The translations under genes and the position numbers were made by a program. 64,000 bases of DNA from contig CBDFJR010000005.1 in NCBI GenBank assembly GCA_965248535.1, positions 779,546 to 843,545 of the forward strand. Direction: 5' to 3'. Origin of the DNA: Phormidesmis sp. (GTDB lineage Bacteria; Cyanobacteriota; Cyanobacteriia; Leptolyngbyales; Leptolyngbyaceae). This document shows positions 1 through 35,646 of this stretch, one piece after another (position 1 is the stretch's first letter; each line of letters begins with the position of its first letter). A model generated the notes under the pieces. That model saw only the letters and a program-made list of their open reading frames with translations. It made no database searches and had not been told where the DNA came from.

Positions 1-296
1 ACTAAAACCCAGGCGATCAGAGTGCCAAACACGCCGTTAAATAGAGCCGCCGCCAGCGATGTTGTAAAGGTCACATCATAGGTTGATAGCGCGATCGGGC
101 TAGTGGCAATTCGCCAAAAGTTAGCGGGGCTTTCGGTGCTCGCTTTGAGAAACATCGCGGCGAGGGGCAAAAACAACATCACACTCAGATAGCCGATCGT
201 GATGCGCCAAGTCCAAGGCACTTGAGCCAATCTAGTCAGCAGCGATTTCCGGGCGGGAGGCTTCTGAAGTTGATCGATTTGAGGAGAAGAAACCAT
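1..296 (-). CDS. cysT: Sulfate ABC transporter permease CysT, 5' part (runs off the left edge of the window)
   Basis: Manual translation from ATG at 296: MVSSPQIDQ...WRITIGYLSVMLFLPLAAMFLKAS...LSTYDVTFTTSLAAALFNGVFGTLIAWVL, typical CysT N-terminus; directly downstream of sbpA. Confidence 0.88.
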   Translation of the reverse strand, partial: MVSSPQIDQLQKPPARKSLLTRLAQVPWTWRITIGYLSVMLFLPLAAMFLKASTESPANFWRIATSPIALSTYDVTFTTSLAAALFNGVFGTLIAWVL

Positions 297-392
297 CGGC
301 GTAGTAAGCAAGTGAGATGAACGGTTTAAAGGGACAGTTCTTAAGAACCGCCCCAATTTTTTAAACCTCGGAGGTTTGAACCAGATCGGGCG

Positions 393-1527
393 TTATTTAA
401 TCGTTGCCTCGATTTGATCAAAGACTCCGCCGTCTTCAAAAAACTTCTTCTGGAAATCGTCCCAGCCCCCATAGTCTTTGATGGTGCCCAGAGTTTTCAC
501 CGCCGGGAATTTGTCTGTGTTTTCTTTCTGACTGGCGATCGCTGGATCAATGGGTCGATAGCCCAACTTGACAAACTCTTGCTGCGCCTCTGGCGTGAAC
601 AGGAACTTGACAAACCCTTCGGCGGCTTCGCGTGTGCCGTGCTTATCGACATTTTTATCGACCACCGCCACCGGAGTGTCGATCGAGATATTCACATCCG
701 GCACGGTATAAACCAGCTTTTCGCCTTTGTTTTTGGCGAGAATAATCTCGTTTTCGTAGTTAATCAATGCGTCGCCTTGACCTTGCTTAGAAAACGCGTC
801 TGTTGCTTCACGCGCATCTTTAGTCAGCACGGCCACATTTTTAAAAGCTTTTGTGGCAAAGTCTTTGGCTTTGGCTTCATCTGCGCCTGATTTGAGCGAC
901 GCATTCCACAACGCTAAAAAGTTCCATCGAGCCACGCCAGAGGTTTTGGGGTTTGCCGTCACCCACTTGACATCTTCTCTGGCTAAATCGTTGAAGCTCT
1001 TGATATTTTTAGGATTACCTTCGCGGGTGGTGATTGCCGCGACCGTTTTAGCCACGATGCCATTATTGGGCACTTTCGTATCCCAGCCTTCGTTGACTAG
1101 CCCGGCTTTGACTAGTTTGTTGGTGTCGCCAGCTAGGGCTAAATGCACGATATCGGCTTCTAGACCGTCGATCACGGCGCGAGTTTGAGTGCCCGATCCG
1201 CCATAGCTTTGCTTAAAGGTGACCGTCTGACCGCCATGATCTTTTTTCCACTGCTCAACAAATTTAGGAATGATCGCGTCGTGAGCCGTTTTAGGAATGG
1301 CATAGCCGACGAGGGTGAGTTCGACATCTCTCTGGTTTTGAGCCACAGGGCTACCTCCAGGACTGGTGGCCGTGGAGTTAGTTGTCCGCCCCGTTTGAGC
1401 AAGCTGCGATCGCCACACTCAGCGCCATCCCCACCATAAAAAGCGATGCAAAGCGCCGAATCGAATCAAATTTAACCTGACGGGCCAGATGTCTCCACCC
1501 TGCTAAAGCCCCTTGTCGAACCCCCAT
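393..1527 (-). pseudogene. sbpA: Sulfate ABC transporter substrate-binding lipoprotein SbpA, split by a +1 frameshift just after the lipobox (real or sequencing error)
   Basis: ORF 393..1418 has Sbp motifs (QSYGGSGTQTRAVIDGLEADIV, NPKTSGVARWNFL) but no signal peptide. The leader MGVRQ...SLFMVGMALSVAIAACS lies in another frame (ATG 1527, GGAG upstream) that stops at 1378. Span 1135 bp = 3n+1; C4 run at 1389-1392. Confidence 0.85.
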
Positions 1528-1833
1528 GATCGTGATCTCCCTTAATCTACAGTTCGTTGATCGGAATTTAGTACTTATCCTCTGACTGTTGATCCTAGCG
1601 GGAGAACGCCCAAAAAACAAGTAGAAAGTCCTTATTTTTGGTCGGGAAAGTGGGGATTAAAAAAAGGCGCGTTGATCGAGGTTCTAAACCGTGAATTTTA
1701 CAGGCTGAATTCTGGATTTTGAATAACCTTCCTAAAGGAGTTGCGCGATCGCTGATAAATTCAGTCTAGTAGTCAGAGAGCTTGTGGGCAAACCCCTGCT
1801 GTTGCTGATCGTCGCCCTACCCAAGGAACCTAA

Positions 1834-3759
1834 ATGACCAGACCCGCTCACCTGAGTCAATCGCATCGCAGAAAGTTTACGCGTTGGTTATTAAACGACG
1901 ATCGCAGCCATAAAGGGCGGCCGCCGCAACATGCTTGGTGGCAAGTGATGTGTCTAACAGGAGTCGATTATTTTTCGACCCTAGGCTATCAGCCAGGAAT
2001 CGCAGCGTTAGCGGCTGGCTCTTTGTCTCCGATCGCGACCCTGATTTTAGTGCTGTTGACGTTGTTTGGCGCGTTGCCGATCTATCGGCGCGTTGCTGAA
2101 AAAAGCCCCCATGGGGAGGGGTCGATCGCCATGCTTGAACATCTGCTGCCGTGGTGGCAAGGCAAGCTGTTTGTCTTGTGTCTGTTGGGGTTTGTGGCTA
2201 CTGACTTTATTATTACGATTACGCTTTCAGCCGCCGACGCGACAGCGCATATTCTCGAAAATTCTTTAACGCCTGCTATTCTTCACGGTCAGGAGATCGC
2301 GATCACACTGCTGCTAGTGGCGCTGCTAGGAGCCGTGTTTTTAAGAGGATTTCGAGAAGCGATCGGGCTTGCTGTTTCGTTAGTCGGCGTTTATTTGGTG
2401 TTGAATCTGGTCACCATCAGCGTTGGTCTCTACCAAATTTTGCAACACCCGATCGTGCTTTCAAACTGGCAAACCGCCCTCTTTGCCGAGCACGGAAATC
2501 CGTTTGCGATGATCGGGGTGGCGCTGCTGCTGTTCCCCCGGCTGGCGCTGGGTTTGTCAGGGTTTGAGACGGGCGTGGTGGTGATGCCGCTGGTCAAAGG
2601 GCATCCGAGCGACACCGAAGCGCAGCCTAAAGGCCGCATTCAAAACACTCATAAGCTGCTGACGATCGCGGCGCTGATTATGAGCTTTTTTCTGCTCACC
2701 AGCAGTCTGGTGACGACTTTGCTGATTCCGGCGGCAGAGTTTCAAACGGGCGGCAAAGCGAGTGGGCGGGCGCTGGCTTATCTGGCTCACCAATATTTAG
2801 GTGATGGATTTGGCACGGTTTATGACTTGAGCACGATCGCGATTTTATGGTTTGCAGGAGCCTCAGCAATGGCAGGGTTGCTCAACATTGTGCCGCGCTA
2901 TCTGCCGCGCTATGGCATGGCTCCTAATTGGGCACGGGCGACTCGTCCATTAGTGCTGGTTTATACGGCGATCGCGTTTGTGATCACGATCCTGTTTCGA
3001 GCCAATGTCGAGGCCCAGGGCGGAGCCTATGCGACCGGAGTTTTGGTTTTAATCAGTTCAGCCGCGTTTGCGGTGACATTATTGGCCCGCCATCGGCGAT
3101 CGCGGCGCGGCGTGATCACGTCTGGTCTCATTACCATTGTGTTTTTATACACCACAGTGGTAAATATCATTGAGCGACCCGAAGGGATTCGCATTGCCGC
3201 TTTTTTCATCAGTGCAATCATTCTTACGTCTCTGATTTCGCGAGTTTGGCGATCGACCGAGTTGCGAATCGAGAACATTGAGTTAGATGAAACGGCTCGG
3301 CGCTTTATTGCCGAAGAGAGTCAACACACGATTCGGCTGATTGCTAATCGCTTAAATGCAGGCGACGAGCGAGAATATTTCTTAAAAGAGAAAGAGGTTC
3401 GTGAAGATAATCACATTCCCGAAACCGATCCGATTCTGTTTTTAGAGGTGCAGGTGTCTGACGCGTCGGACTTTGGTGGCACCCTTCACGTCAGCGGCGT
3501 TCAGGTCGATCGCTACCGAATTTTGCGGATGAAAAGCGCGGCGGTTCCGAATGCGATCGCGGCTATTTTACTAGATCTCCGCGATCAGACCGACCAGTTG
3601 CCACACATCTATTTTGGGTGGGCAGAGGGCAATCCGATTCAGTATTTGCTGCGGTTTATTTTATTTGGCGAGGGTGACATTCCCGTGGTGACCCGCGAAG
3701 TGTTGCGACTGGCTGAAAAGAACCCCGATCGTCGTCCCACTATTCATGTGGGCGGTTAA
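1834..3759 (+). CDS. APC-superfamily permease (amino acid/cation transporter) with soluble C-terminal domain
   Basis: 641 aa, many TM segments, [10 protein letters not shown] in TM1 and GLSGFETG in TM6 as in APC/YdaO-like permeases. Confidence 0.75.
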
Positions 3760-3900
3760 GGAGATAATCAATTCTGTTGGTTAGTGATATCGATTTTGGG
3801 CACGACAATGCTATGCCCATATACCAAAAGCTATTACACATAGCCGATTTAGCTCTGATAGAATGCTATTGTTCATACCGTTGTCTACAGGAATTCAATA

Positions 3901-4698
3901 ATGGCTCGAAGACGTGTTTGGATTTTTCTCGCTGCGATTCTAGCTACGTTCTCGATCGCAACTAGCTGCGATTTTAGAAAATCTGATTCTAGCGTTACTC
4001 CATCTCAAACAAATTTGATTGTTTCGGCTGCTGTCAGCCTTAAAGATGCCCTAGACGAAATCAAGCGATCGTATCAGCAAAAAGCCTCTACAACCAGCCT
4101 GACCTATAATCTGGGCGCATCGGGCGCATTGATGCAGCAGATTCAAAACGGGGCCCCGGCTGATGTCTTTATTTCGGCAGCAAAGAAGCAAATGGACATT
4201 CTAGAGAAGGGGGGAGAGTTGCTGCCCAACACCCGCCGCGATTTGGTCAAAAATCAGTTGGTTTTGATTGTGCCTAAGGGATCGCAAAAAGCGACGAGTT
4301 TCGCCAGTTTAAGCGATGGGGCGATCCAGCGAGTGGCGATCGGAGAGCCGCGCAGCGTGCCAGCCGGACAGTATGCCGAGCAGGTTTTGCAGAAGCTCAA
4401 GATCTACGACGCATTAAAACCTAAATTTGTTTATGCCAATACAGTCCGGCAAGTGTTAGCAGCCGTCGAAAGCGGCAGCGCCGATGCAGGAATCGTCTAT
4501 CTGACGGACGCAAATTCGTCTCAGCAGGTCACGGTAGCGGCGATCGCGGCTGAAACCGATCATGCCCCGATCGTGTACCCGATCGCGGTGCTCAAAAACA
4601 GCAAAAATCCGCAGGCGGCCAAAGAATTTGTGCAATTTTTAGAGAGCGATTCAGGAAAGTCGATATTTAAAAAGTATGGGTTTATTGTTCCTAATTAA
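3901..4698 (+). CDS. modA: Molybdate ABC transporter substrate-binding protein
   Basis: Lipoprotein leader (ATSC), SAAVSLKDAL, GASGALMQQIQNGAPADVFISA, VPAGQYA motifs. Confidence 0.95.
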   Translation: MARRRVWIFLAAILATFSIATSCDFRKSDSSVTPSQTNLIVSAAVSLKDALDEIKRSYQQKASTTSLTYNLGASGALMQQIQNGAPADVFISAAKKQMDILEKGGELLPNTRRDLVKNQLVLIVPKGSQKATSFASLSDGAIQRVAIGEPRSVPAGQYAEQVLQKLKIYDALKPKFVYANTVRQVLAAVESGSADAGIVYLTDANSSQQVTVAAIAAETDHAPIVYPIAVLKNSKNPQAAKEFVQFLESDSGKSIFKKYGFIVPN

Positions 4699-4710
4699 AG
4701 TCCCGCAATA

Positions 4711-6519
4711 ATGCCCTCTGATCTATCTCCATTCTGGATCTCGCTCAAGACGGCTGCGGTTTCAACGGTGGTCACCTTTGTTATAGGCATTGCTGTAGCC
4801 TATTGGATGCTCAACTATCGCGGCAAAGGCAAAATCGTTTTAGAAGGACTTCTGATTTCGCCGTTGATTCTTCCGCCGACCGTCGTTGGATTCATTTTAC
4901 TATTACTATTGGGTAAAAATGGCGTAATCGGAAAGCTGCTGATTCCGCTTAACACTAGCGTTGTGTTTAGCTGGTCTGGAGCGGTCATTGCAGCGATCGT
5001 CGTCTCATTCCCCTTAATGTATCGCACCGCATTAGGCGCATTTGAACAAATTGATGCTAATTTTTTGCATGTTGCTCGCACCTTGGGCGCATCAGAATGG
5101 ACGGTTTTTCGGCGCATTCTTCTGCCCTTATCGCTTCCGGGCATTCTTGCCGGAACTCTGCTAACGTTTGCGCGGGCCTTGGGAGAATTTGGGGCAACGC
5201 TGATGCTGGCAGGCAACATTCCTGGTGAAACGCAGACGATGCCGATGGCGATCTATTTTGCGGTCGAAGCGAGTGCGACGGGTGAAGCCACTTTTTGGAC
5301 GATCGTGATTCTCTGCCTCTCGCTGTCGGGGCTTTTTGCCGTCAATGTTTATCAACACTCCAGACCACGATCGCGAATAAAGAGCCACAATCGGGCTATT
5401 TTCGCGTCCCTTTCTGCCGCTTCACCCGACTTATCTGCTGCCTCATCTGCCCTCTGGGTCACCCTTCAAAAGCCGCTTTCTGACTTTGATCTCACCGTGT
5501 CTTTTAGCGCCAATCAAGCCCCGATCGGTGTTTTGGGCGGCTCAGGAGCAGGCAAAACGATGCTGTTGCGCTGCATTGCCGGAGTCGAGACCCCCACACA
5601 GGGGCAAATCGTGCTCAATGGGCGGGTGTTGTTCGACTCAAAACGCGGCATTAATCTGCCGAGCCGCGATCGTCGAGTCGGGTTTGTGGTGCAAAACTAT
5701 GCCCTGTTTCCGCACATGACCATAGCGCAAAATATTGCCTTTGGGTTACCAAAATCGCTCGACGCAGGGCAGCAAGTTCACCAGCAGTTAGCCGCCCTAC
5801 ACCTGCAAGGATTGAGCGATCGCTATCCCCATCAACTGTCAGGCGGGCAACAGCAGCGAGTTGCCTTAGCTAGAGCGTTAGCCAGTCAGCCAGAGGCTTT
5901 GCTGCTAGACGAACCGTTTTCAGCCCTCGACACATGTTTGCGAAGTCAGATAGAGCAGCAGATGATCACCCGATTAGCCACCTATCCAGGGGTGACACTG
6001 CTGGTGACTCACAATTTAGAAGAAGTCTACCGGGTCTGCCCAAATTTGCTGGTGCTCGATCGGGGGCAAGCCGTCGCCCAAGGAGCGAAACACTTGATCT
6101 TTGATCGTCCCGAAACCTATACCGTGGCGCAACTGACGGGATGCAAAAATTTTGCCCGTGCGATCGCCATTTCTGCCACCCAAGTAGAGGCGATCGAGTG
6201 GGGAATTCGACTCACGATCGCGGCCCCGATTCCTCAATCACTCGCTTATATTGGCATTCGTGCCCATCAAATCACGTTTCTAGACCCCGCCACCCGCTTT
6301 GATCGAGGCCCTAATCACTTTGACTGCTGGCTAGTCAAAACGAGCGAAACGCCGCATCGCATGACCGTGTTTCTCAAATTCAATGCGCCGCCAACTCATG
6401 CAGAAGATTATCACCTACAAGCAGAAGTCTTTAAAGAAGCCTGGCTGGTTGTAGAGCAGCGATCGCTGCCGTGGTCTGTCAAATTAGACCGATCGCGACT
6501 GATTTTGATGACCGCTTAA
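4711..6519 (+). CDS. modBC: Fused molybdate ABC permease/ATPase ModBC
   Basis: N-terminal permease (LILPPTVVG, FARALGEFGAT), then ABC domain (GGSGAGKT, LSGGQQQRVALARAL, LLLDEPF). Confidence 0.93.
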   Translation: MPSDLSPFWISLKTAAVSTVVTFVIGIAVAYWMLNYRGKGKIVLEGLLISPLILPPTVVGFILLLLLGKNGVIGKLLIPLNTSVVFSWSGAVIAAIVVSFPLMYRTALGAFEQIDANFLHVARTLGASEWTVFRRILLPLSLPGILAGTLLTFARALGEFGATLMLAGNIPGETQTMPMAIYFAVEASATGEATFWTIVILCLSLSGLFAVNVYQHSRPRSRIKSHNRAIFASLSAASPDLSAASSALWVTLQKPLSDFDLTVSFSANQAPIGVLGGSGAGKTMLLRCIAGVETPTQGQIVLNGRVLFDSKRGINLPSRDRRVGFVVQNYALFPHMTIAQNIAFGLPKSLDAGQQVHQQLAALHLQGLSDRYPHQLSGGQQQRVALARALASQPEALLLDEPFSALDTCLRSQIEQQMITRLATYPGVTLLVTHNLEEVYRVCPNLLVLDRGQAVAQGAKHLIFDRPETYTVAQLTGCKNFARAIAISATQVEAIEWGIRLTIAAPIPQSLAYIGIRAHQITFLDPATRFDRGPNHFDCWLVKTSETPHRMTVFLKFNAPPTHAEDYHLQAEVFKEAWLVVEQRSLPWSVKLDRSRLILMTA

Positions 6520-6543
6520 AACCTCAATGTCTTTTATAGGGGT

Positions 6544-9000
6544 TTATCTGATACGAACTCTTTGAGAAATTTGAGTCCTTAGCTTAATCTGGTTGTACAA
6601 ATCGACTTCAGGATTTGAGTGACTGATAGACACAACTAATGCATATCTTTGCATATCGATTTCTCCTTGCTTCGCCCATTTTCGGGCACAACTGAGAACA
6701 AGATACATAGGCTGATCGAATCCTTTAGCTTGAGGAGAGATCTTAATTTTCCCTTGTTGGAGACATCCTTTTTTCCTCAAGTTGCTTCCGGGGAAAAGAT
6801 CTACAGAAATTCCTTTACCAGGATGCATCTTCCTCAATTCCTCTAAAGAGATTTCTGTAAACTCCTCTGTTGGAGCCTCTTTGCTAGCCTTAACAAAAGC
6901 ATTAATAATGCTCTCTTTATCAATATTTTTGAAAAGGTTGAATTCCATCGTGATTCCAAGGTAGGAGTCTCCTCGTGTTGGACGAGTGGGCGGATCAAAC
7001 GAAAGTGTAATTGATAATGTTCGAGTACCCTTGGTCTTCAGATATTCATTTGGAAGCGGGGGAATCTCAAATATCTGGAAGCTTCCCACAGGAATTTGTA
7101 CATCGTCTTCCAGAAGGACTACATAATTTTCAGCAGAGTATTTCGCTCGGAATAAGTCGGGCTGACCATATCCATAGATTTGTAACTGCTTCTGTAATTG
7201 CTTCTTGTCTTTGTCATTTTTTGCCTGGAAAACACGAGGAATTTCATTAGGCAAATTAGCTGAGTTTATAATTAATGCTCTAACCAAGTTTGAGGTTGCA
7301 TTTGGGAACTGAGTGAAGAGCTGGGCTGCCATATTAGCCACACGGGGAGCTGCAAAACTAGTCCCGCAATATGCACGAAACATTGATTTTGCATTATCTT
7401 TGGCAAGTGTCAGAATCGAAGCACCTGGTTCATTCGTGATTACACGGCTTCCATCAACAACTAAATCACCACCAAAATCCACAAGGTCAGGTTTAATCAT
7501 GCCATCGACACCAAATCCGCTCCTTGTAAACGGAGAAGGATATCCCTGAACCCGTGCAACTACACTTCTTTTGGCATCCTCAGTGTACTGAAGACTGCCA
7601 GACCCCAGCGAAAGTGAGCCAACTGTGAGAGCAATTGCCGAAGTAGCTGGTTCAATAATTCGTGCTTCTTCATTGAGCAAATAGTTTGGATAGTCGGTTC
7701 GCAACTGCTCCCCTGAACCTGCTTCGTAAGGCAAGTTACCTGCGGAAATAACGAATACCAAGTTCTTATGCTGGAATTCATAGGCAATTTCATCAATTTT
7801 TGCAGCAAGACGAAACTGCTTTTGCCCATCTCTAAACGCTAATCGAGGGTCTCCCAGAGAAATATTGATGACCTTGCAGTTTCCATAATTTTGCGTGAAA
7901 TATTGAATCGCATCATCCAATTGATTCTCTAGCAATGAATCTGGGTCGTACTCATTATTATGATCAGTAACACGAGCCGAGAAAAGCCAAGCTGTTGGTT
8001 GAAATAATCGATTTTTGACGCTTTGACTGATATCTCCATAGATTGCGATTCCCGATACGCCTGTGCCGTGACCACCTGTTTTCTCATCTCCATCATCGGA
8101 ACCTCCTGTAATAAATTCTCTAGCTGAATCTGGGAAAATCTCCGCTTCTCCCAGAGCAGGAGCAATCAGAGGATGTCCTTGGCGTACCCCGGAATCAATG
8201 ACTAGAATTCCACAGTTTTGCTCAGGAGGAGGATTAACTTCTGGCAAATCAGACAGTGGAATGTTGTACTCAGCAGGAGTCTCGAAGTTGGGTTTGGCTC
8301 TGCGGTCAATCTCCTTGACGAATTCCTCTTCTAGTAAGAGGTTGAGAACTTCTTGCACAATCTTAATCCTGGCTATGCAGAGGTATTCTCCTACGTAGCG
8401 ATCGCTAATCCTCATGGCAGAATTATCTGACCAATTTCTCAAGACCTGATCCAGGTCATCCAGGTACTTATTCATTTCAGCCCTGTCGCCCGTGTGCCAT
8501 AACTCTAAGTCAAGTGCAGCAAGCTCACTCGTCTGGATGGGTTCTAGTTCTAGTAGGCATCCAATTCGATCCGAAGGTTCTAGTGGCACCAACCCTTCAA
8601 TTGCATCTAAGTAACCGTATTCATATTCAGAGTCACTGATGCCACTATAGGCTTTTAAACGTGATCGGAATTGAGTCAGTTCTTTATCCGAAGTGAAAAC
8701 AACAATGGCTTTATTCGCCTTTGGTTCTTTGGCAAGTAGCGTTAATCCGAGTGGTGAGAGCGCACTCTCTTGCAACGTGCCGTCCGAACTCAGCTTAATT
8801 TTGAAGATGAGTTTTGGGTTTAGGTGAAACGGTGAAGTTTTTTGCTTGGAGCGTTGAGTCAATCCTGAAACCTGATCTAGCAGTTGTTGACCATGACTAC
8901 CGCGATCACTTCTGCGAGAGCCAAAGCCGCCACCACCTCTGCTACGTCGTGGTAGCTCGATACTGGTTCTCGGCAACTCTAGGTGCTCAAACTGACTCAC
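6544..9000 (-). CDS. ietS: S8 subtilase-family serine protease, IetS-like
   Basis: Catalytic triad motifs VIDSGV (Asp), GHGTGVSG (His), GTSFAAP (Ser); overlaps the upstream AAA ATPase by 14 bp. Confidence 0.82.
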   Translation of the reverse strand: MSQFEHLELPRTSIELPRRSRGGGGFGSRRSDRGSHGQQLLDQVSGLTQRSKQKTSPFHLNPKLIFKIKLSSDGTLQESALSPLGLTLLAKEPKANKAIVVFTSDKELTQFRSRLKAYSGISDSEYEYGYLDAIEGLVPLEPSDRIGCLLELEPIQTSELAALDLELWHTGDRAEMNKYLDDLDQVLRNWSDNSAMRISDRYVGEYLCIARIKIVQEVLNLLLEEEFVKEIDRRAKPNFETPAEYNIPLSDLPEVNPPPEQNCGILVIDSGVRQGHPLIAPALGEAEIFPDSAREFITGGSDDGDEKTGGHGTGVSGIAIYGDISQSVKNRLFQPTAWLFSARVTDHNNEYDPDSLLENQLDDAIQYFTQNYGNCKVINISLGDPRLAFRDGQKQFRLAAKIDEIAYEFQHKNLVFVISAGNLPYEAGSGEQLRTDYPNYLLNEEARIIEPATSAIALTVGSLSLGSGSLQYTEDAKRSVVARVQGYPSPFTRSGFGVDGMIKPDLVDFGGDLVVDGSRVITNEPGASILTLAKDNAKSMFRAYCGTSFAAPRVANMAAQLFTQFPNATSNLVRALIINSANLPNEIPRVFQAKNDKDKKQLQKQLQIYGYGQPDLFRAKYSAENYVVLLEDDVQIPVGSFQIFEIPPLPNEYLKTKGTRTLSITLSFDPPTRPTRGDSYLGITMEFNLFKNIDKESIINAFVKASKEAPTEEFTEISLEELRKMHPGKGISVDLFPGSNLRKKGCLQQGKIKISPQAKGFDQPMYLVLSCARKWAKQGEIDMQRYALVVSISHSNPEVDLYNQIKLRTQISQRVRIR

Positions 9001-10396: not shown

Positions 10397-12472
10397 ATGT
10401 CTAATTCTGATCAAGCGTTGCGCTACCCCGCCACCCACAAAATCGAGCAGACCGACGACTATCATGGAGTCTCGATCGCTGACCCCTATCGATGGTTAGA
10501 AGATCCTGACTCTGACGAGACAAAGGCTTGGGTCGAAGCGCAAAATCAAATCACATTCGGATATTTGCAGCAAATTCCGGTGCGCGAAGCGATTCAGAAA
10601 CGCTTAACGCAACTCTGGGATTATGAAAAATACAGCGTTCCGTTTAAAGAAGGAAATCGCTATTTCTATTTCAAAAATGATGGATTGCAGAATCAAAGTG
10701 TTCTCTATACGCTCAATGCTTTAGACGCTGAACCGAGAGTTTTACTCGATCCTAACAAACTCTCAGATGACGGCACTGTGGCACTCTCGGGGCTATCGAT
10801 TAGCGAAGATGGAGCCTGGATGGCCTATGGATTGTCTACGTCTGGATCGGATTGGCAAGAGTGGCGAGTGCGAGAGATCGCAACGGGAAATGACACAAGC
10901 GATCGCTTGCAGTGGATCAAATTTTCTGGCGCATCGTGGACGCATGATCACAAAGGGTTCTTCTATTCTCGCTATGACGAGCCGAATGAGAAAACCAAGC
11001 TAGAAGACGCGAATTATTTTCAGAAACTTTATTATCATCGGCTTGGCACTGATCAGGCTGACGATAGTTTAATCTACGATCGCCCCGATCAAAAAGAATG
11101 GGGTTTTCAAGGTGGCGTGAGCGAAGACGGACAATATCTCATCGTTTCGGTTTGGCTGGGCACCGATCCGCGTAATCTGGTTTTCTACAAGGATTTGTCC
11201 AATCCTGATGCGCCTGTGGTCGAGCTAATTAGCGACTTTGAGGCGAGTTTTAGCTTTGTGGATCATGAGAAAAACCTGTTCTGGTTTCAGACCGATTTGG
11301 ATGCGCCACGGGGCCGAGTGATCGCGATCGACGTGACAAAGCCCGATCGTCCACAGTGGCAAGAAGTCATTCCTCAATCGGCAGAAACGCTCGAAAGTGT
11401 TGGCTTGCTCAATCAGCAATTTGTCGTCTCCTATCTCAAAGATGCGCGCAGCGAGGTCAAGATTTTTGATTTGGCGGGTGGATTCATTCGAGAGATCGCC
11501 CTACCCGGAATTGGCTCGGCGGGCGGATTTGACGGTAAGCGAGACGACACCGAAACGTTTTACAGCTTTACGAGTTTTACGACTCCGCCGACGATTTATC
11601 GCTATAACTTAGCGACGAATGAGAGTACGCTGTTTCGTCAGCCGCAGGTAGACTTTAACCCCGATGATTATGAGACTCGCCAAGTCTTCTACAGCAGCAA
11701 AGACGGAACGCAAGTGCCGATGTTTATTACCCACAAAAAGGGACTGAACCTCGATGGCAACAATCCGACGGAGCTTTATGCCTATGGCGGCTTTGGGATT
11801 TCGCTAACGCCTAGTTTTTCAGTCGGTAATTTAGTTTGGATGGAGCTTGGCGGCGTGTTTGCTCTGCCCAATCTGCGGGGCGGTGGCGAATATGGCGAAG
11901 ACTGGCATCAAGCCGGGACGAAGCTCAAAAAGCAAAATGTGTTTGACGACTTTATCGCAGCCGGGGAATGGCTGATTGCAAACGGATATACGTCATCGTC
12001 GAAACTGGCGATCGCCGGAGGCAGCAATGGCGGTCTGCTCGTCGGCGCGTGCATGACCCAACGCCCCGATCTGTTTGCGGCTGCTCTTCCGGCTGTCGGC
12101 GTGTTGGATATGCTGCGGTTTCACAAGTTCACGATCGGGTGGGCGTGGATGCCTGAATATGGCTCTCCAGAAGACCCAGAAGAATTCAAAGCGCTCTATG
12201 CCTACTCGCCGTTGCATCGACTCAAATCTGGCACGGCCTATCCTGCAACGCTGATTACAACCGCCGACCACGACGATCGGGTAGTGCCTGCCCACAGTTT
12301 TAAGTTTGCAGCGGCCCTGCAAGTGGCTCATTCAGGCGATCGTCCGGTTCTGATTCGAATTGAGACAAAAGCGGGTCACGGGGCGGGCAAACCCACCGCT
12401 AAAGTGATCGAGGAGATTGTCGATAAGTGGGCATTTCTAGTGAAAACCCTGGATTTTTCACCCACTCTTTAA
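10397..12472 (+). CDS. Prolyl oligopeptidase (peptidase S9A)
   Basis: DPYRWLED N-terminus, beta-propeller region, GGSNGG nucleophile, DHDDRV and AGHGAG motifs; start placed at MSNSDQ (ORF track begins 10370). Confidence 0.95.
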   Translation: MSNSDQALRYPATHKIEQTDDYHGVSIADPYRWLEDPDSDETKAWVEAQNQITFGYLQQIPVREAIQKRLTQLWDYEKYSVPFKEGNRYFYFKNDGLQNQSVLYTLNALDAEPRVLLDPNKLSDDGTVALSGLSISEDGAWMAYGLSTSGSDWQEWRVREIATGNDTSDRLQWIKFSGASWTHDHKGFFYSRYDEPNEKTKLEDANYFQKLYYHRLGTDQADDSLIYDRPDQKEWGFQGGVSEDGQYLIVSVWLGTDPRNLVFYKDLSNPDAPVVELISDFEASFSFVDHEKNLFWFQTDLDAPRGRVIAIDVTKPDRPQWQEVIPQSAETLESVGLLNQQFVVSYLKDARSEVKIFDLAGGFIREIALPGIGSAGGFDGKRDDTETFYSFTSFTTPPTIYRYNLATNESTLFRQPQVDFNPDDYETRQVFYSSKDGTQVPMFITHKKGLNLDGNNPTELYAYGGFGISLTPSFSVGNLVWMELGGVFALPNLRGGGEYGEDWHQAGTKLKKQNVFDDFIAAGEWLIANGYTSSSKLAIAGGSNGGLLVGACMTQRPDLFAAALPAVGVLDMLRFHKFTIGWAWMPEYGSPEDPEEFKALYAYSPLHRLKSGTAYPATLITTADHDDRVVPAHSFKFAAALQVAHSGDRPVLIRIETKAGHGAGKPTAKVIEEIVDKWAFLVKTLDFSPTL

Positions 12473-12796: not shown

Positions 12797-12884
12797 GCAT
12801 AACGTTGCCCATCACCCGCCGCAGATCAACTTTGTAGTATACCGATCAACTCTCGGCGGTCGGTGTGCAGGGGCGTTGTTATGC
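12797..12884 (-). mobile_element. Integron attC site B (88 bp)
   Basis: Top (minus) strand GCATAACAACGCCCCTGCACACCGACCGCCG...GCGGCGGGTGATGGGCAACGTTATGC: complementary R''/R' boxes (GCATAAC/GTTATGC), imperfect L arms with extrahelical bases, 67 bp downstream of a minus-strand gene. Confidence 0.8.
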
Positions 12885-12951
12885 AGCGATAAATAACCAT
12901 GATGTTTCTCCATTTCATAAAACCTGGAAGAGATTCATAACCATCGGCGCA

Positions 12952-13284
12952 TTATGATAAAGCAAGCAGCGATAAGTTCTCATCTTCATAAAATAATTTG
13001 ATCGCGTCAAAATTCTGACGCAGCAAATTTTCAACCTGTGATGTCGAACAATTTCCAAGACGAAGCCAAATAACTTTCGGTGGATTTCCAGATACTAAGC
13101 TCAGGTCGTGCATATCCGCATCTTTCGAGACAATCATCAAATTCTTGTCTTTTGCATAATCCCAAACGATTGGATCGATTGTTGCCTTCATGCCCACGTC
13201 TCGAACGTGAAGCGAATTTGGGAAAAGATCACTTAAACGATTTGGCAACTTGGGCGACAAGTTTTCATCAAAAAGCAATTTCAT
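12952..13284 (-). CDS. DUF5615-family PIN-like toxin (VapC-type)
   Basis: LLFDENLS, IVSKDADM, PPKVIWLRLGN motifs; 4-bp overlap with the upstream DUF433 gene. Confidence 0.88.
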   Translation of the reverse strand: MKLLFDENLSPKLPNRLSDLFPNSLHVRDVGMKATIDPIVWDYAKDKNLMIVSKDADMHDLSLVSGNPPKVIWLRLGNCSTSQVENLLRQNFDAIKLFYEDENLSLLALS

Positions 13285-13511
13285 GCGGATAGTGGAGCAC
13301 TCATAAACCGACGCTCACGGTCGGCAGCATAAGCAATACAGGCTTTCAAATCTTCTCGCGTTAGATCAGGAAAATCGTCGAGAATTTCTGCTTCGGTCAT
13401 CTCGGAAGCTAGGTACTCAAGCACTTCATAAACCGTAATTCGCAAGCCACGTACACAAGGCTTACCACCGCGCTTATCGGGTTCGATCGTGATGTAATTT
13501 CGGTAGTTCAT
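13281..13511 (-). CDS. DUF433-family antitoxin
   Basis: ITIEPDKRGGKPCVRGLRITV...EILDDFPDLTREDLKACIAYAA is the DUF433 signature. Confidence 0.92.
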   Translation of the reverse strand: MNYRNYITIEPDKRGGKPCVRGLRITVYEVLEYLASEMTEAEILDDFPDLTREDLKACIAYAADRERRFMSAPLSA

Positions 13512-13570
13512 ATTAAAAGCATCTGAATGTTAATCAAATTGTAGCTTTGCAGTGGCGACTGATTCGCCCT

Positions 13571-13956
13571 TCACTTTAGATGATTTAGTTTCCACTCTAC
13601 CCACTCTGTATAAGTTTTAACCTTTGCGGGCGCATCCAAAACCTCAAAGTGCGACTTCGGATCAGTCAGCAAGTCCAAAACCAATTCCTCATACTCCTCT
13701 CGTGTAATCTCAAAAGGTTTCCACGAGCAACCTCCACTCATCCCAGCATCATATTGAGCTTTTCCGTCTGGAAAAGCCCATTAGGGAAAAACTCATTGGG
13801 CACACCCTGCTTTAACAAGTAACTTAATACATGAAAAGGTGGAATAAATTTATTTAACACGTAGGGCATCGCAAGTAGCAAATCCTTCAGCGTCCCTCTC
13901 GTCCAAATCCCGCCCGCGCAATGCATCGCATAAAGTTTAAAACGCAACTCTCTCAC
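13571..13956 (-). pseudogene. Frameshifted ~128-aa hypothetical cassette gene
   Basis: Frame 1 MRELRFKLYAMHCAGG...PNG (GTG 13956, GAGG upstream). A second frame AFPDGKAQYDAGMSGGCSWKPFEITREEYEELVLDLLTDPK...NHLK* is open to 13571. Span 386 bp = 3n-1. Confidence 0.6.
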
Positions 13957-14012: not shown

Positions 14013-14798
14013 GCATAACGACTAAGATAAGCGGCGGCAGATAACCTTTGCATCCCCACAAAGATCTCGCGCCCGTCCGCTTCATCGACTTGTGTACGCC
14101 CAGCATGGGTGTGAACTAATGGGGTGAAAGTCCCCTGTCGGAGAACCAACGTCCAAATGATCCCAAAAGATCCGAGTGACGACAACGACTAGCTTAAGGT
14201 AAGGGCGTTTCCGCGAGGAAGGGTCTGAAGGAAGCCAGCGGCAAATCTGCGAGCTGACGGACAGAAACGTCATAGAAGGCTGAGATTCCTGTGGCAAGTG
14301 AGCACAACATCATGAAGCCTTTTGGTTCAGGGAACACAGTAAATGACGCAGTTGTGCAGAGACAGTTCACGTTCTTATCTGGGGAGATCTGCTCAAAGGG
14401 CGGTCTGAGGGTCTACGGGAGTCTGATTGAGGTCTAGCGGGAAACGGCTAGGGAGCCACGGAACCCTAAGGACATTCAGGCAGCGTGAGTCATGGCAACA
14501 GGACTCATGATTGAGCAGAAGTCAGCAGAGGTCATAGTAGCCAAACACTCACCGTAATGGGTGAGACAGGGTGAAGGGCTGAACCTTAGAAAGCAGGGAG
14601 GAGTTGCAAAGCTCGACTGGGCGATGAACCCGAACGGGGGAGCTATTTTGTCGGCGCTTAACTGCACAACCAGCCCTGGATATTCAGTTCTATTGAACTG
14701 GCTTGTCTAAAACTTTTCTGGGGACGCGCCCCGTGCGGAGCCGCACGCGGGGTGCCGTGGGGACTGGGGGAGAAAATCCCCTGGTTACCCGATTAGCC
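14013..14798 (-). mobile_element. Integron attC site A (86 bp once the intron is removed), interrupted by a group II intron
   Basis: Joining 14013-14093 to 14794-14798 gives top strand GGCTA^ACAAGTCGATGAAGCGGAC...GCCGCCGCTTATCTTAGTCGTTATGC with paired GAT(G)AAGCGG/CCGCTTATC L boxes. Confidence 0.85.
14094..14793 (+). ncRNA. Group IIC (attC-targeting) intron, ORF-less / internally deleted, 700 nt
   Basis: 5' end GTACGCCCAGCATGG...GGGGTGAAAGTCCCC; class C landmarks TCTGAAGGAAGC, AGTAAATGA, TTATCTGGGGAGATCT, AGAAGTCAGCAGAGGTCATAGTA; EBS1 ACAA (14304-14307) complementary to exon TTGT; DV GCGCCCCGTGCGGAGCCGCACGCGGGGTGC (14726-14755, CGC triad); DVI ending TACCCGAT; only ~130 nt of domain IV, no RT ORF. 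Confidence 0.93.
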
Positions 14799-14821: not shown

Positions 14822-15187
14822 CTATAACTCATCAATCGTTACCAACCCACCTTCTGTGAACTGGATTACAAGCTCATGCTCGTCTAGCAAAGCAGTTCCA
14901 ATTAGAGGTCGCCGTCCTGTAGCAAACACACGAGCTTCTCGCTCCTCTCCGTTCCAAAGAATGATCGCTTTGTGCACTGGCAATATAACTCGGCTGTTAT
15001 CTGCCAAATTCGCACGCATATCATGTTTGAAAGGAAGATTCAGTAAAGCGACTGCTTCTGGCGGGAGACAAAGCTCATCTGTAAATCCTGTGTCTACTAC
15101 AAACTCAACTGGGAAGTCAGCGCGATTGGGAATCCGAAACGGGATGGTAATAATGGCGTGTCCGTCAGTAACAATACCCGAAATCAC
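14822..15187 (-). CDS. Clan AA (retropepsin-like) aspartic protease, AF_0612-like
   Basis: VVDTGF catalytic motif and C-terminal RRPLIGTALL; 121 aa; GTG start overlaps the upstream TGA by 4 bp. Confidence 0.85.
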   Translation of the reverse strand: MISGIVTDGHAIITIPFRIPNRADFPVEFVVDTGFTDELCLPPEAVALLNLPFKHDMRANLADNSRVILPVHKAIILWNGEEREARVFATGRRPLIGTALLDEHELVIQFTEGGLVTIDEL

Positions 15188-15459
15188 TTAACCACACGCT
15201 CCATGACACCACCACTAAAAGCCGCACCAACGTTGTACCCGATTTTGATCCCGAAGAGTCGGGCATTGGGGTGTTTCTCGCTCAAGTAGTCAGCGGCGCG
15301 TAAGCTATTTTCATCAACCTTGTAATCACCTGTCTCAATGTCAATGATGACGATCTTCCCGATGTTTTCTTCCACTTCCACCTCTTGGCGAATCCTGTCT
15401 TCGTATAGTTGCTCTGCACGTTGAGCAACTTCTTCGCGACTTAAAAGGATGGCTTGCAT
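15184..15459 (-). CDS. Small acidic protein translationally coupled to the aspartic protease (91 aa)
   Basis: MQAILLSREEVAQRAEQLYEDRIRQEVEVEENIGKIVIIDIETGDYKVDE...RLFGIKIG; start reassigned to ATG 15459 because the longer ORF overlaps the next gene. Confidence 0.75.
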   Translation of the reverse strand: MQAILLSREEVAQRAEQLYEDRIRQEVEVEENIGKIVIIDIETGDYKVDENSLRAADYLSEKHPNARLFGIKIGYNVGAAFSGGVMERVVK

Positions 15460-15538
15460 ATTCTGGCTCCCGATCGCTGTGTGGCTGTTGAAGAACCCCT
15501 TCATTATATCTTGTAAACGAAGCCTACAATGCCGACCA

Positions 15539-16075
15539 TTATTGCTTGATCCGAGCATACCAGCCGTAGGTTGTTCTCTGAGCCTTAGCACCTGTCCCTG
15601 AAAATCCTTCAAAAGAACCAGCCAAAGTGTATACCTTACCTGAACCCTCTCCATTTGAGAACATGTAGCCTGTATGAAATTGGAGAGTAGACGGATCTTT
15701 AGAATCAATGATTCTTATGAACGTGATCTTCTGGGCATCTTCATCCCAAAAACCATTGATCGGATTACCCATGACCGATCCTTGCACATTCCCGTTCACA
15801 TCAATAGCCGAAATTTTTAGCGTCCCTTCATATCCATTCCCATTAAATTGCCAGTCTCCAATTAGCAGGGATACTGAAGCATTGCTGGAATTGCTGGAAT
15901 TGCTAGAAGTTATAGGTAGCTGAGTGGATGGTGTAGGCGAAGCAGACTTATTGGAAGCAGAAAGTTTATCCCAGTTCGCAAACAGAGCTACAGCCACTGT
16001 GCCAATTAAACCAACCACAGCCAAAATAATCTGAGTGCGAGAATCTAACCCTTTGTTTTCATTATTATCTGTCAT
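15539..16075 (-). CDS. Hypothetical membrane-anchored protein (one TM, Ser/Asn linker, beta-rich domain)
   Basis: TM IILAVVGLIGTVAVALFA, SSNSSNSSN linker encoded by 9-bp tandem repeats, beta-strand-rich C-terminus with Trp/Gly turns. Confidence 0.7.
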   Translation of the reverse strand: MTDNNENKGLDSRTQIILAVVGLIGTVAVALFANWDKLSASNKSASPTPSTQLPITSSNSSNSSNASVSLLIGDWQFNGNGYEGTLKISAIDVNGNVQGSVMGNPINGFWDEDAQKITFIRIIDSKDPSTLQFHTGYMFSNGEGSGKVYTLAGSFEGFSGTGAKAQRTTYGWYARIKQ

Positions 16076-19356: not shown

Positions 19357-20766
19357 GTGCAGAAGTTGGGCTTGATCAAATCGCTACTTTCATCTCTAGG
19401 TAGAATGGACGCGCAAAAAACATTACGACAAAAAGGCAGGAAACCCCTGCTGCGGCTAACTAGCCTGCTAATCTTTGGAGGCATCTTTCTCGCCTTACCC
19501 GCCCGATCGCAGATCATTCCTCAAGCCACCGCCGCCGCCAGAGACACTCAGCGCCAACAGCAGGTCAACCAAACGCGCCCCGATCGCTACGATCTCAGCC
19601 GCCACCCCGTCAACGATGCCAACGAACGCTATTGGCGAAACTTGCTCTGGTCAACCGCCATCACAGAACCGCAGCTTGCGTCAGTCGATGGAGCAATCGC
19701 GCAAATTCTCTCGCTGACGGCTCGCCGGGGTCTCTCTAACGCCCAAGCCCGAACGCTGGAAATGGCGATGCAGGTTGGCACTCAGCTTTATCTCAGCAAC
19801 CCAACTCAATATGACGGCGTAAAGCAACAGTTTTTGCAAACCATCGATCGTAGCCCTGATGCAGAATGGGTGGCGATGGCGGTGTCGGCACTAGTGCAAG
19901 GAGGTGCCGAGACTGAACTGCGATCGCAGTGGCTGACCCTGATTCAGCAACGGTTTCCTCAATGGCGCGACGATCCGGCTCTGTTGACAACGCTGCGGAC
20001 GATCGAGAGTCTCGATCGCCCCCATCTCACTCCACCCTTAAAAGATCTGTTGACTTGGACGATTGCCCCTAACCAGCTTCAGATGTATGTGATTTGTCGC
20101 CCCGATCGTGGACTTCTCTGTCAAGCGATTTTAAAAGACCGTCGAGGGCAGTTTGTTCGTCAAGACGGTGAATTGTGGTCAGTGCCCTTGCTGACCCGAT
20201 CGCTGCATGGTTTATCGAGCGTCTTTACGCGGGGGCAAACTCCGCAGGGAGTCTACCGCATTGAGGGCAGCGTTCCGCAGCCGGATACGGAGTTTTTTAG
20301 AGCCTATGGCACCTTTCCTCTGGTCAAGCTATTTACGCCCTTTGAGCCGGGGGTAAAAGCCTTTTTGCCCAACCATCCGGGACAAATTGCTGGGCTGTCT
20401 GCCTATCAGTCGCTGCTGCCACCATCTTGGCGCAACGAGTTTGCAGTCCAGCAGAGCTATTGGGCAGGCAAAGCGGGTCGAGGTCTATTTAGAGTGCACG
20501 GCAGCGGCGAAGATCCTGGATTTTTTACCAACAATAGTCGCTACCCTGACAGTGCAGGCTGGAACCCGACGATCGGTTGTCTTTCTGCCCTAGAACTCTA
20601 TGACCAAACGGGACGACTTCAGCAAGCCGACATGCCCAAGATTTTGAGCGCTCTAACCGCCGCAGGTGGACGGGATTTTTCGGGCTACTTGATGGTGGTT
20701 GAAGTTCCCGATCGTGCCAACGCTCCGATCTCAAAGCAAGAGATTGAGTCCGTGCTGAGAGAATAA
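19357..20766 (+). CDS. Conserved cyanobacterial exported protein with a possible L,D-transpeptidase (YkuD)-like catalytic motif
   Basis: Signal/TM region (LLIFGGIFLALPARS), GQTPQGVYRI, and RVHGSG...PTIGCL His/Cys motif; start codon uncertain. Confidence 0.55.
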   Translation: MQKLGLIKSLLSSLGRMDAQKTLRQKGRKPLLRLTSLLIFGGIFLALPARSQIIPQATAAARDTQRQQQVNQTRPDRYDLSRHPVNDANERYWRNLLWSTAITEPQLASVDGAIAQILSLTARRGLSNAQARTLEMAMQVGTQLYLSNPTQYDGVKQQFLQTIDRSPDAEWVAMAVSALVQGGAETELRSQWLTLIQQRFPQWRDDPALLTTLRTIESLDRPHLTPPLKDLLTWTIAPNQLQMYVICRPDRGLLCQAILKDRRGQFVRQDGELWSVPLLTRSLHGLSSVFTRGQTPQGVYRIEGSVPQPDTEFFRAYGTFPLVKLFTPFEPGVKAFLPNHPGQIAGLSAYQSLLPPSWRNEFAVQQSYWAGKAGRGLFRVHGSGEDPGFFTNNSRYPDSAGWNPTIGCLSALELYDQTGRLQQADMPKILSALTAAGGRDFSGYLMVVEVPDRANAPISKQEIESVLRE

Positions 20767-34338: not shown

Positions 34339-35646
34339 ACGTGGGAAACTCAGTGTCTTCAGACCTGAGAGGAAAACGGTTGCTTCGCAGTTCCGCAAAG
34401 GGGTAATCGCGTGGTTTTAACCACCGTATTCTTTCTGGATGAGTTATAATTGACTCATGACTCAATCCCTGTCTGTGAAATGTAAGCTGATAGTCCCTTC
34501 TAACTTTCGTCCACAAATTGACGAGACGTTGGAAGGGTTTTCGCTTGCCTGTAATCAGATCTTGGAAGTCGCAAAACGTGAGAATTGCTGGAACACCACG
34601 AAGCTTCACCATCTGGTTTATAAACCAGTTAGAGAGGCAACGGGGTTGAAAGCAAACCATGTTTGCCAAGCGATTCGTCGCGTGATTGGCAACGTCAAAG
34701 CCGTCAAACAAGTCCACAAATTTAGACCCACCTCTTTGAGTCTGGACGTTCGCACGTTCAAGTATGTGGAGGAAAGTCAAACCGTCGGAGTCACCCTCAA
34801 GTCTGGACGAGTTCAATTTGCCCTGTCTATTGGGGGCTATCAAATCGCCTTGCTCAGAGGTCAAACTTTGACCAGTGCAACGCTGAACAAAACCAAAAAA
34901 GGCGACTACTACGTCAACTTTGTAGTTGAGCTTGAAACGCCGCCTACTGGCAAAACTCCCAAGGTAATTGGGGTTGATTTGGGACGGCGTGACATTGCCA
35001 CAACCAGCACTGAAAAGAGTTGGAGTGGAGAGAAGATTCAATCTGTCCGTGACCGATATAGCAAGGTCAGAGCCAACGTTCAATCCAAACGCACTCGGTC
35101 TAGTCGCAGACTGACGAGACGGCTTTCTGGGAGAGAACGGCGGTTTCAGGAATGGTTGAATCACAACATCAGCAAGCAACTCGTGCAAGACGCTAAATCG
35201 CAGAATGCAGCCCTGGCTTTTGAAGACTTGACCCACATCAGAGAGAGTCTGAACCAGAAGCCTAGAAGCAAAGTAGAGCGACGTAGAACCAATAATTGGG
35301 CGTTCTATCAACTCCGCTTGTTCGTGGGCTACAAGGCTGCAATCGCGGGGGTTGCTGTAATTTTCGTGCCACCTGCTTACACAATCTCAAACCTGCAACC
35401 GATGCGGACATCTTCACCCCGTCAAAGGGAAAAGTTATCGCAACGGGAAGCGGTTTAAGTGTGGTCACTGCGGGTTTGAGCATGATGCTGACGTGAATGC
35501 GGCTAAGAATATTGCTGCTTTGGGGTTGTCTGTAAGCCAGCCCGAAAGTCCGGGGCTGAGTTGTCAACTAGCGGGTCAGATGACCCTCTTTCCGACGATT
35601 CAAAACTGTGGCTAAAGCTCAGTCCCTTTAAGGCTGAGTTGCTTAC
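34339..35646 (+). mobile_element. IS200/IS605-family element, TnpB-only (IS1341-like); left boundary approximate
   Basis: Left hairpin GAAACTCAGTGTCTTCAGACCTGAGAGGAAAC (34345-34376); right hairpin AAGCTCAGTCCCTTTAAGGCTGAGTTGCTTAC ending 35646; no tnpA. Confidence 0.85.
34457..35615 (+). pseudogene. tnpB: RNA-guided endonuclease TnpB with a +1 frameshift before the zinc finger
   Basis: RuvC-I VIGVDLG, RuvC-II LAFEDL. Removing one A at 35383-35384 restores PAYTSQTCNRCG...CGHCGFEHDADVNAAKNI to a stop at 35615; span 1159 = 3n+1. Confidence 0.9.

Follow-up and report, generated by a model that had tools for sequence, protein, structure and literature searches.

A stretch of 64,000 nucleotides from the cyanobacterium Phormidesmis sp. 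(GenBank assembly GCA_965248535.1, contig CBDFJR010000005.1, positions 779,546 to 843,545; hereafter the window) carries a 700-nt group II intron that is inserted in an integron recombination site (attC) and has no open reading frame (ORF) for a reverse transcriptase (RT). To our knowledge, the introns of class IIC that reside in attC sites (IIC-attC introns) are described mainly as RT-encoding elements of proteobacterial integrons. The question raised by this locus is what an ORF-less intron of this kind is doing in a cyanobacterium. The evidence set out below makes it likely that the window copy is a member of a non-autonomous, ORF-less IIC-attC family of filamentous cyanobacteria for which the RT is presumably provided in trans, and comparison of the copies suggests that the family is apparently still spreading.

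The intron occupies positions 14094 to 14793 of the forward (+) strand, from GTACG to CCCGAT, and was identified by three Rfam matches and by homology to RT-encoding relatives. A segment of domain I (14207-14373, +) matched RF02001 (group-II-D1D4-3) over the full length of the model with 127.8 bits (E 6e-26), and the segment between domains I and IV (14484-14579, +) matched RF01998 (group-II-D1D4-1) with 63.7 bits. The first-pass annotation, made from the letters alone, had proposed that the 3′ end be compared with the Rfam models of domains V and VI (DV and DVI). RF00029, the model for these two domains, matched 14724-14793 (+) over its full length with 43.5 bits, above its gathering score of 40, and the match ended exactly at 14793; it surfaced in a local E-value scan and was lost to filters in the Rfam scan of the whole window. 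Together with the alignment to IIC-attC introns, the three matches bear out the earlier description of a 700-nt class C intron. All the neighbouring genes are on the minus (−) strand, so the intron is, as also described, antisense to the cassette genes.

Group II introns are recognised by DV, a 34-nt helix with a catalytic triad and a bulge, followed by DVI with a bulged A located 7-8 nt from the 3′ end. Class IIC is distinguished by a pairing of only 3-4 bp between the exon-binding site EBS1 and the intron-binding site IBS1, together with an EBS3-IBS3 pairing and an upstream stem-loop that replaces IBS2. In the RF00029 alignment, DV of the window intron (14725-14756, +) has a CGC triad at 14725-14727, and DVI (14758-14791, +) has its branch point, a bulged A, at 14787, seven bases from the 3′ end. 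In the comparison of copies described below, the pairs of DV are kept throughout and the stem of DVI shows compensatory changes. Domains I to III are conserved, and the 5′ end, GUACG in the RNA, is the same in all IIC-attC relatives and fits the GUGYG-like consensus of group II introns.

The recognition elements that were located are those of class IIC. EBS1, ACAA (14304-14307, +), was located with the RF02001 alignment in the terminal loop GCACAACA of a domain I hairpin, a loop that is conserved in all copies. It is complementary to IBS1, TTGT, the final four bases of the 5′ exon (14090-14093, +); the pairing is 4 bp long, the next position having C opposite C, and immediately upstream of the insertion site is the hairpin of the attC bottom strand. 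The intron is followed by T (IBS3), as in all related copies, and then by AGCC (together 14794-14798, +), the remainder of an R″ box split as GT/TAGCC. The complete junction sequence is CGACTTGT / GTACGCCCAGC...CCCGAT / TAGCCTGC. The first-pass assignments of EBS1, IBS1, the CGC triad and DVI agree with the Rfam alignments and with a scripted check of the coordinates. Positions 14094-14793 are a complete group II intron RNA with every catalytic and recognition element intact. A 7-nt complementarity between the exon (GCTTCAT, 14079-14085) and the intron (ATGAAGC, 14312-14318) was rejected as a further recognition element, as the intron segment lies within the paired 3′ strand of the EBS1 hairpin and the match is absent from the Kovacikia copy described below; it is probably due to chance.

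The target is equally precise. The 5′ exon side of the attC bottom strand (14013-14093, +) runs from a GCATAAC box (14013-14019) through the L boxes and the loop to TTGT. The first-pass annotation had placed the insertion at TTGT/TAGCC in the R″ box. Excision of the intron in silico indeed restored GTTAGCC, and the rebuilt site of 97 nt folded on the + strand into a long, imperfect hairpin of attC type. The same junction also occurs without the intron in public data.

A blastn search against plasmids gave 373 records. Nucleotides 1-510 and 634-700 of the intron aligned at 67-77% with introns that carry ltrA, and ltrA begins exactly where the similarity ends. One of these relatives is on E. coli plasmid NZ_LT985250, where it adjoins qacEdelta1 and sul1 of a class 1 integron on the opposite strand, and another is on a plasmid of Vibrio campbellii. 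The 5′ end of the window intron, GTACGCCCAGCATGGG at 14094, is that of these RT-encoding introns, and the plasmid relatives have the same DV and the same TTGT/T flanks; TTGT precedes 25 of the 29 related introns examined. IIC-attC introns are defined by where they insert, namely at TTGT/T (IBS1/IBS3) within the R″ box, on the bottom strand of attC and against the direction of the cassette genes, a definition that extends to clusters of attC sites lacking an integron-integrase (CALINs) (PMC7923331, PMC3001079). With S.ma.I2 of Serratia marcescens and its relatives in class 1 and chromosomal integrons, which are also reported in CALINs (PMC7923331, PMC3001079), the window intron shares an alignable ribozyme, the same 5′ end, the CGC of DV and EBS1 ACAA, as well as the target in the R″ box and the orientation. 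Unlike them, it has no RT/maturase ORF, its domain IV (DIV) is 140 nt rather than ~1.35 kb, its host is cyanobacterial rather than proteobacterial, and no outward promoter (Pout) was predicted in a simple sigma-70 scan. On these comparisons it has every RNA-level feature of an IIC-attC intron and departs from the autonomous members only in not encoding an intron-encoded protein (IEP). Its placement in the IIC-attC clade is by proxy, through the alignment of the ribozyme (67-77%) with attC-resident introns that encode an IEP and through a remnant of about 30 codons that aligns with the N-termini of those proteins.

This remnant was found in DIV (14584-14723, +), which in the window intron is closed by a basal stem (14584-14593 with 14714-14723) and contains a conserved inner arm, as modelled with RNAalifold from five ORF-less copies of two phyla. 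In full-length relatives DIV is ~1.35 kb long and encodes an IEP of 443-449 amino acids. Here, a decayed frame (14604-14696, +) starts with TTG at 14604 behind GGGAGGAG, a Shine-Dalgarno sequence, has a stop at codon 8 and ends after about 30 codons with TGA at 14694-14696; ~35 nt separate its end from DV. The frame reads LQSSTGR, stop, TRTGELFCRRLTAQPALDIQFY, stop, and aligns with the N-terminus of intact IEPs at matching length, one residue to one residue, with LSHLNTRTPSGDDVTQRSDMKPAFSNDLF set against LQSSTGR, stop, TRTGELFCRRLTAQPALDIQF. From the alignment, roughly codons 31 to 433 (~1.2 kb of ORF) were deleted from DIV. The first-pass annotation had seen in DIV a 28-codon remnant and no RT. 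The RT is absent and the 28-codon ORF exists (ATG 14624 to TAA 14708-14710), but it uses a different frame and is disrupted by a frameshift in the Kovacikia copy, and it was rejected as the RT remnant in favour of the frame at 14604-14696. Thus, where an autonomous intron has an RT/maturase, DIV of the window intron has only a decayed 30-codon frame and an unrelated 28-codon ORF.

The RNAalifold set consisted of three cyanobacterial copies, one from Agarivorans and one from Shewanella. Over DIV, DV and DVI 62 pairs were predicted, and compensatory changes on both sides were seen at 24 of them, which with five sequences is supportive and not statistical proof. The covarying pairs include the basal stem of DIV, its inner arm with the hairpin CCCGAACGGG, and the stem of DVI. 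Where the helices of the window intron and the Kovacikia copy differ, the differences are compensated, including in the first hairpin of the RF01998 segment. As 24 of the 62 pairs keep pairing through two-sided changes, the model supports the view that DIV is a maintained RNA structure rather than decaying filler.

The window copy is not alone. Plasmid pA of Kovacikia minuta CCNUW1 carries a 698-nt ORF-less copy that is 86.7% identical over its full length, including DIV, and is inserted in a related attC. This copy (A) and a second complete one on the same plasmid (B) are 99.86% identical to each other but lie 270 kb apart in attCs that differ on both sides; the complete copies are at 6001-6698 of locus L001 and 12923-13620 of locus L130. 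The plasmid also has a 5′-truncated copy (nt 180-700; L130 22810-23329, −) and a 3′ fragment (L130 ~11985-12094, +), both with the exact CCCGAT/TAGC junction. Truncation at the 5′ end with an exact 3′ junction is the pattern that would be expected from abortive target-primed reverse transcription. A lineage-specific 28-mer was found in six metagenome contigs, which include three complete ORF-less copies of 700 nt that are 100% identical and are followed by three different 3′ exons. These identical introns, in three cassettes of one metagenome, are those of loci L124 and L125, in which the same 80-nt attC half precedes the intron. A contig of a Leptolyngbyales metagenome-assembled genome (MAG) begins inside another ORF-less copy.

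Two runs, X1 and X2, hold the unique flanks of the window without differences and so derive from the source strain or from one almost identical to it. The X1 contig that matches 14375-14795 exactly had a depth of 95, against 12-22 for the unique flanks, and in X2 the matching intron contig had a depth of 229, against ~45. From these depths the source strain has roughly five identical copies. It also has a second ORF-less subfamily at similar depth, several minor variants, at least three further ORF-less DIV variants, and several contigs with intron-less paralogous sites (TTGT/TAGCC). The attC core (14018-14085) reached a summed contig depth of 1,500-2,000 in these runs, against 12-22 for unique DNA, and on this basis the strain seems to carry about a hundred related attC-like sites beyond the window.

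The family is also present in RNA preparations. Metatranscriptomes from ice share up to 61% of the sampled 31-mers of the intron, and their family contigs, some of which cross exon-intron junctions, reach a depth of ~2,000; the intron-less homologous cassette-attC junction is present at high depth as well. These contigs are strandless and may include carried-over DNA, so they indicate presence in RNA preparations and not splicing.

ORF-less forms are not confined to cyanobacteria. A broad search of genome contigs with a DV pattern gave at least 119 loci, mostly gammaproteobacterial, with one cyanobacterial contig (L020) among the matches listed. ORF-less copies of 629-727 nt were found in Agarivorans sp. 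QJM3NY_25, Shewanella sp. 10N.286.48.A6 and an uncultured bacterium, all flanked by TTGT/TA. The DIVs of the gammaproteobacterial copies are 132-139 nt (L010, L018, L034, L036, L045, L116) and have end points like those of the 140-nt DIV of the window. Each ORF-less IIC-attC copy, in both phyla, retains the Shine-Dalgarno sequence, about 30 N-terminal codons and ~35 nt before DV. Judged by their sequences, these shared end points would mean either that the same deletion recurs or that selection keeps only this form. Locus L010 has an intact in-frame mini-ORF of 41 codons with the same end points and looks like a recent, independent deletion of an intron of the L003 type. Neighbour-joining of the ribozyme cores placed the ORF-less copies with local full-length introns; those of Agarivorans adjoin an intact full-length intron that encodes a 443-aa IEP and have it as their closest relative, an arrangement that would fit a ‘driver IEP’ scheme in those genomes. 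A single ancient ORF-less lineage across both phyla was considered but is not established: the DIV ends are alike, but the cores group with local full-length introns and L010 looks recent.

Two further loci from these searches differ from the rest. In L117, from a Thiolinea sp. MAG, three full-length IIC-attC introns lie head to tail (259-6042) with a period of 1,928 nt, so that each 3′ end directly meets the following 5′ end; a tandem multimer, repeated insertion at the intron boundary and an assembly artefact are the possible explanations. In L014, from the endosymbiont of Lamellibrachia barhami, a mini derivative of 393 nt (4973-5365) has intron-type ends and TTGT/TAGG flanks and is much shorter than the other ORF-less copies.

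A mechanism can be proposed in which an ancestor of the window intron lost ~1.2 kb of the RT/maturase gene from DIV and kept the entire ribozyme together with the base of DIV, the Shine-Dalgarno sequence and some 30 N-terminal codons. The intron RNA would recognise the folded attC bottom strand through its hairpin, the 4-bp EBS1-IBS1 pairing (ACAA/TTGT) and the T at +1, and would reverse-splice into that strand. Copying into DNA would then require an RT that is not self-encoded and that a related autonomous intron would probably supply in trans, in the form of its IEP.

There is a precedent for such a system in cyanobacteria. The ORF-less TeI3 introns of Thermosynechococcus elongatus, of class IIB/CL, have been shown experimentally to be mobilised by the ‘driver’ IEPs of TeI4 introns (PMC2882425). 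The resemblance extends to an internal deletion of DIV that leaves N- and C-terminal remnants and DIVa, a broken remnant frame, a cyanobacterial host, an ORF-less form that outnumbers the ORF-containing form, and good EBS/IBS pairing at the insertion sites (PMC2882425). The two systems differ in that IIB homing uses EBS1 and EBS2, whereas the window family is of class IIC, with a hairpin and a 4-bp EBS1, has no driver IEP located and spans several genera and environments. More generally, ORF-less introns of bacteria are almost always accompanied by related IEPs in the same genome (PMC4424553). As an analogy only, the intron resembles a miniature inverted-repeat transposable element (MITE), in that it is short, has an internal deletion, retains what recognition requires and outnumbers the autonomous parent; unlike a MITE, it is not a DNA transposon but an RNA-mediated retroelement with its own catalytic RNA.

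Several results weigh against mobilisation in trans, the first of which concern the missing protein. Searches for an RT of the YADD type were negative for the window and for ~150 kb of cyanobacterial loci. The ~88 kb of Kovacikia pA that were searched take in every place that matches the intron and yielded no IEP, and all four or five of these places are ORF-less or truncated. All the complete metagenome copies are ORF-less, with no IEP there, and the source-strain contigs that cross DIV at 80% or greater likeness are all ORF-less, contigs that leave the intron within DIV having also been sought. A protein search with the Agarivorans IEP gave at least 8,000 matches; identity was 77% or higher throughout the best 120, and a partner from cyanobacteria could not be singled out. 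The full-length, RT-bearing sister intron for which the first-pass annotation had recommended a search was thus not found in the cyanobacterial sequence within reach. The IEP searches covered the window, portions of pA, metagenome contigs and the source-strain DIV contigs, which is less than any whole genome, so absence is not established. Separately, metatranscriptome contigs in runs X8 and X11 follow the intron as far as 14540 and then run on as TTTCCTTGTGAAACGAAGGGACGAACATGA over more than 165 nt. They represent a divergent relative with a different domain III and DIV, which could be an ORF-containing form.

The remaining results on this side concern the activity of the intron and its target. 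No lariat, circle or back-splice joints were seen in four metatranscriptomes, a weak negative as the contigs are strandless, and the same strandless contigs gave no proven ligated-exon product from this locus. No upstream promoter on the sense strand was predicted in a simple sigma-70 scan. The target of Kovacikia copy A is TAGT, with one mismatch to EBS1, and the near-identity of the copies could partly reflect gene conversion.

The suggestion of the first-pass annotation that this is a non-autonomous copy, still mobile with an IEP supplied in trans, is upheld indirectly by the near-identical copies in different attCs, the 5′ truncations, the multi-copy status and the covariation, whereas the IEP itself was not found. 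The alternative that best survives these results is that the intron is a dead relic, an immobile and non-splicing fossil that was left by the ORF deletion and sits passively in a decaying attC cluster. The lack of an IEP in the window or in reachable related cyanobacterial sequence would be explained in this way, as would the stops in the remnant frame, the attC cluster without an integrase and the lack of a predicted upstream sense-strand promoter. A fossil would not, however, be expected to have all of its catalytic and recognition elements intact, to be present as the exact window variant about five times in the source strain, to covary at its paired positions instead of decaying, to have relatives with very recent spread or to belong to a family that is found in RNA. 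A dead relic is, therefore, considered unlikely.

A second alternative starts from the same missing protein. ORF-less IIC introns with hydrolytic cleavage of both DNA and RNA have been reported under the name of hydrolytic endonucleolytic ribozymes (HYERs; Liu et al., Science 2024, as cited in PMC12990946 and PMC11754743), with a 6-nt target site and, in some members, dimerisation. By the descriptions in those citing passages, the window intron is like the HYERs in being a natural ORF-less group IIC RNA of ~0.6-0.7 kb but differs in that its EBS1 pairs with 4 nt only, against a 6-nt recognition site, and the passages of PMC12990946 and PMC11754743 on HYERs mention no attC association. It is quite doubtful that the cyanobacterial family is without any cognate IEP and is a HYER-like, RNA-only element that cuts, or reverse-splices into, folded single-stranded attC and is either spreading or kept by the host; if this were true, the family would parasitise or regulate the recombination of integron cassettes in several genera of cyanobacteria. 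For the window intron itself, a protein-independent ribozyme of the HYER type, acting on single-stranded attC DNA either as an RNA-only endonuclease or by integrating itself, or else an element served by an unrelated host RT, seems very improbable. The absence of a cognate IEP from the cyanobacterial data searched is in its favour, but those searches fell short of whole cyanobacterial genomes. Furthermore, the retained DIV arm with its Shine-Dalgarno sequence and start region resembles the DIVa of ORF-less introns that are mobilised in trans (PMC2882425), the gammaproteobacterial ORF-less copies co-reside with an intact IEP, and 5′-truncated DNA copies imply reverse transcription.

The least probable explanation, that intron-bearing attCs were multiplied at the DNA level by integrase shuffling, homologous recombination or gene conversion between attC repeats, could draw on the highly repeated and similar attC cores of the source strain and on the identical 80-nt attC half upstream of the intron in L124 and L125, but it is opposed by Kovacikia A and B, whose attCs differ on both sides of a 99.86% identical intron, by the three metagenome copies that directly abut different 3′ exons, by copies that are truncated at the 5′ end but precise at the 3′ junction, as is typical when cDNA synthesis aborts, and by an insertion point exactly at TTGT/T (with the TTGT flank at 25 of 29 relatives).

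Mobilisation in trans of an ORF-less family thus remains the preferred explanation. ORF-less group II introns have been described as rare and short-lived in bacteria (PMC4424553). In the searchable literature, which leaves several subscription papers outside it, no ORF-less IIC-attC introns and no cyanobacterial IIC-attC introns were found described. The present results place the IIC-attC lineage in cyanobacterial attC arrays as well. In the cyanobacterial sequence reached it occurs only as the 700-nt ORF-less form, which is multi-copy, structurally conserved, present in environmental RNA and apparently still moving. The family offers a natural system for the mobilisation of a IIC ribozyme in trans, or without a protein of its own, and a compact attC-targeting RNA of possible use as a tool. 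There is also a warning for annotation: intron searches based on the RT miss ORF-less copies, and attC finders will miss sites that are split by an intron.

The consequences for the cassettes depend on the surrounding locus. The window has only two attC-type sites, which were called from box sequences and folding and not with the IntegronFinder model: the intron-split site (14013-14093 and 14794-14798) and a second, empty site of the same type (12797-12884, +), downstream of a DUF433/DUF5615 gene pair, with an unused TTGT/T at 12876-12880. No Phage_integrase match was found in a Pfam scan of 30 of the larger ORFs in the window, including all those of 250-470 aa. The term CALIN applies where two or more attC sites lie within 4 kb and intI is absent from the vicinity (PMC4889954). 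As there is no intI in the window and there are only two attCs, the locus is a CALIN and not a complete integron, nor is the intron in the attC of the first cassette of an integron; the earlier label ‘cassette 1’ is, accordingly, not supported. The flanks of the CALIN are filled by large genes of housekeeping type, and the window is cyanobacterial chromosome-like DNA, with 71 HIP1 sites against ~1 expected and housekeeping genes such as that for serine hydroxymethyltransferase.

The intron holds the two parts of the R″ box, GT and TAGCC, 700 nt apart, and the folded bottom strand can therefore not form its R box in the way that an intact attC does. From the sequence, the split site may fairly be expected to be a poor recombination substrate and to have lost its competence for recombination for as long as the intron is present. 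This would give a concrete mechanism for freezing integron cassettes in place, although the block of cassette excision that the first-pass annotation had predicted would be relevant only if an integrase were encoded elsewhere in the genome.

The attC that bears the intron belongs to two overlapping genes without a Pfam match (14822-15708, −), which encode a 121-aa retropepsin-like protein with a DTG motif (VDTGFTDE) and an upstream partner. This gene pair is itself multi-copy in the source strain (depth 200-450, against 12-22) and abundant in the ice metatranscriptomes. Between the two attCs (12952-13956, −) the Pfam scan identified the DUF433/DUF5615 (PIN-like) pair, next to an ORF of 72 aa. 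Elsewhere in the window, an ORF at 34457-35458 (+) has an OrfB_IS605 (TnpB-like) domain and is overlapped by an antisense ORF of 329 aa with no Pfam match, and two other ORFs without a Pfam match encode 469 aa (19357-20766, +) and 317 aa (59220-60173, +).

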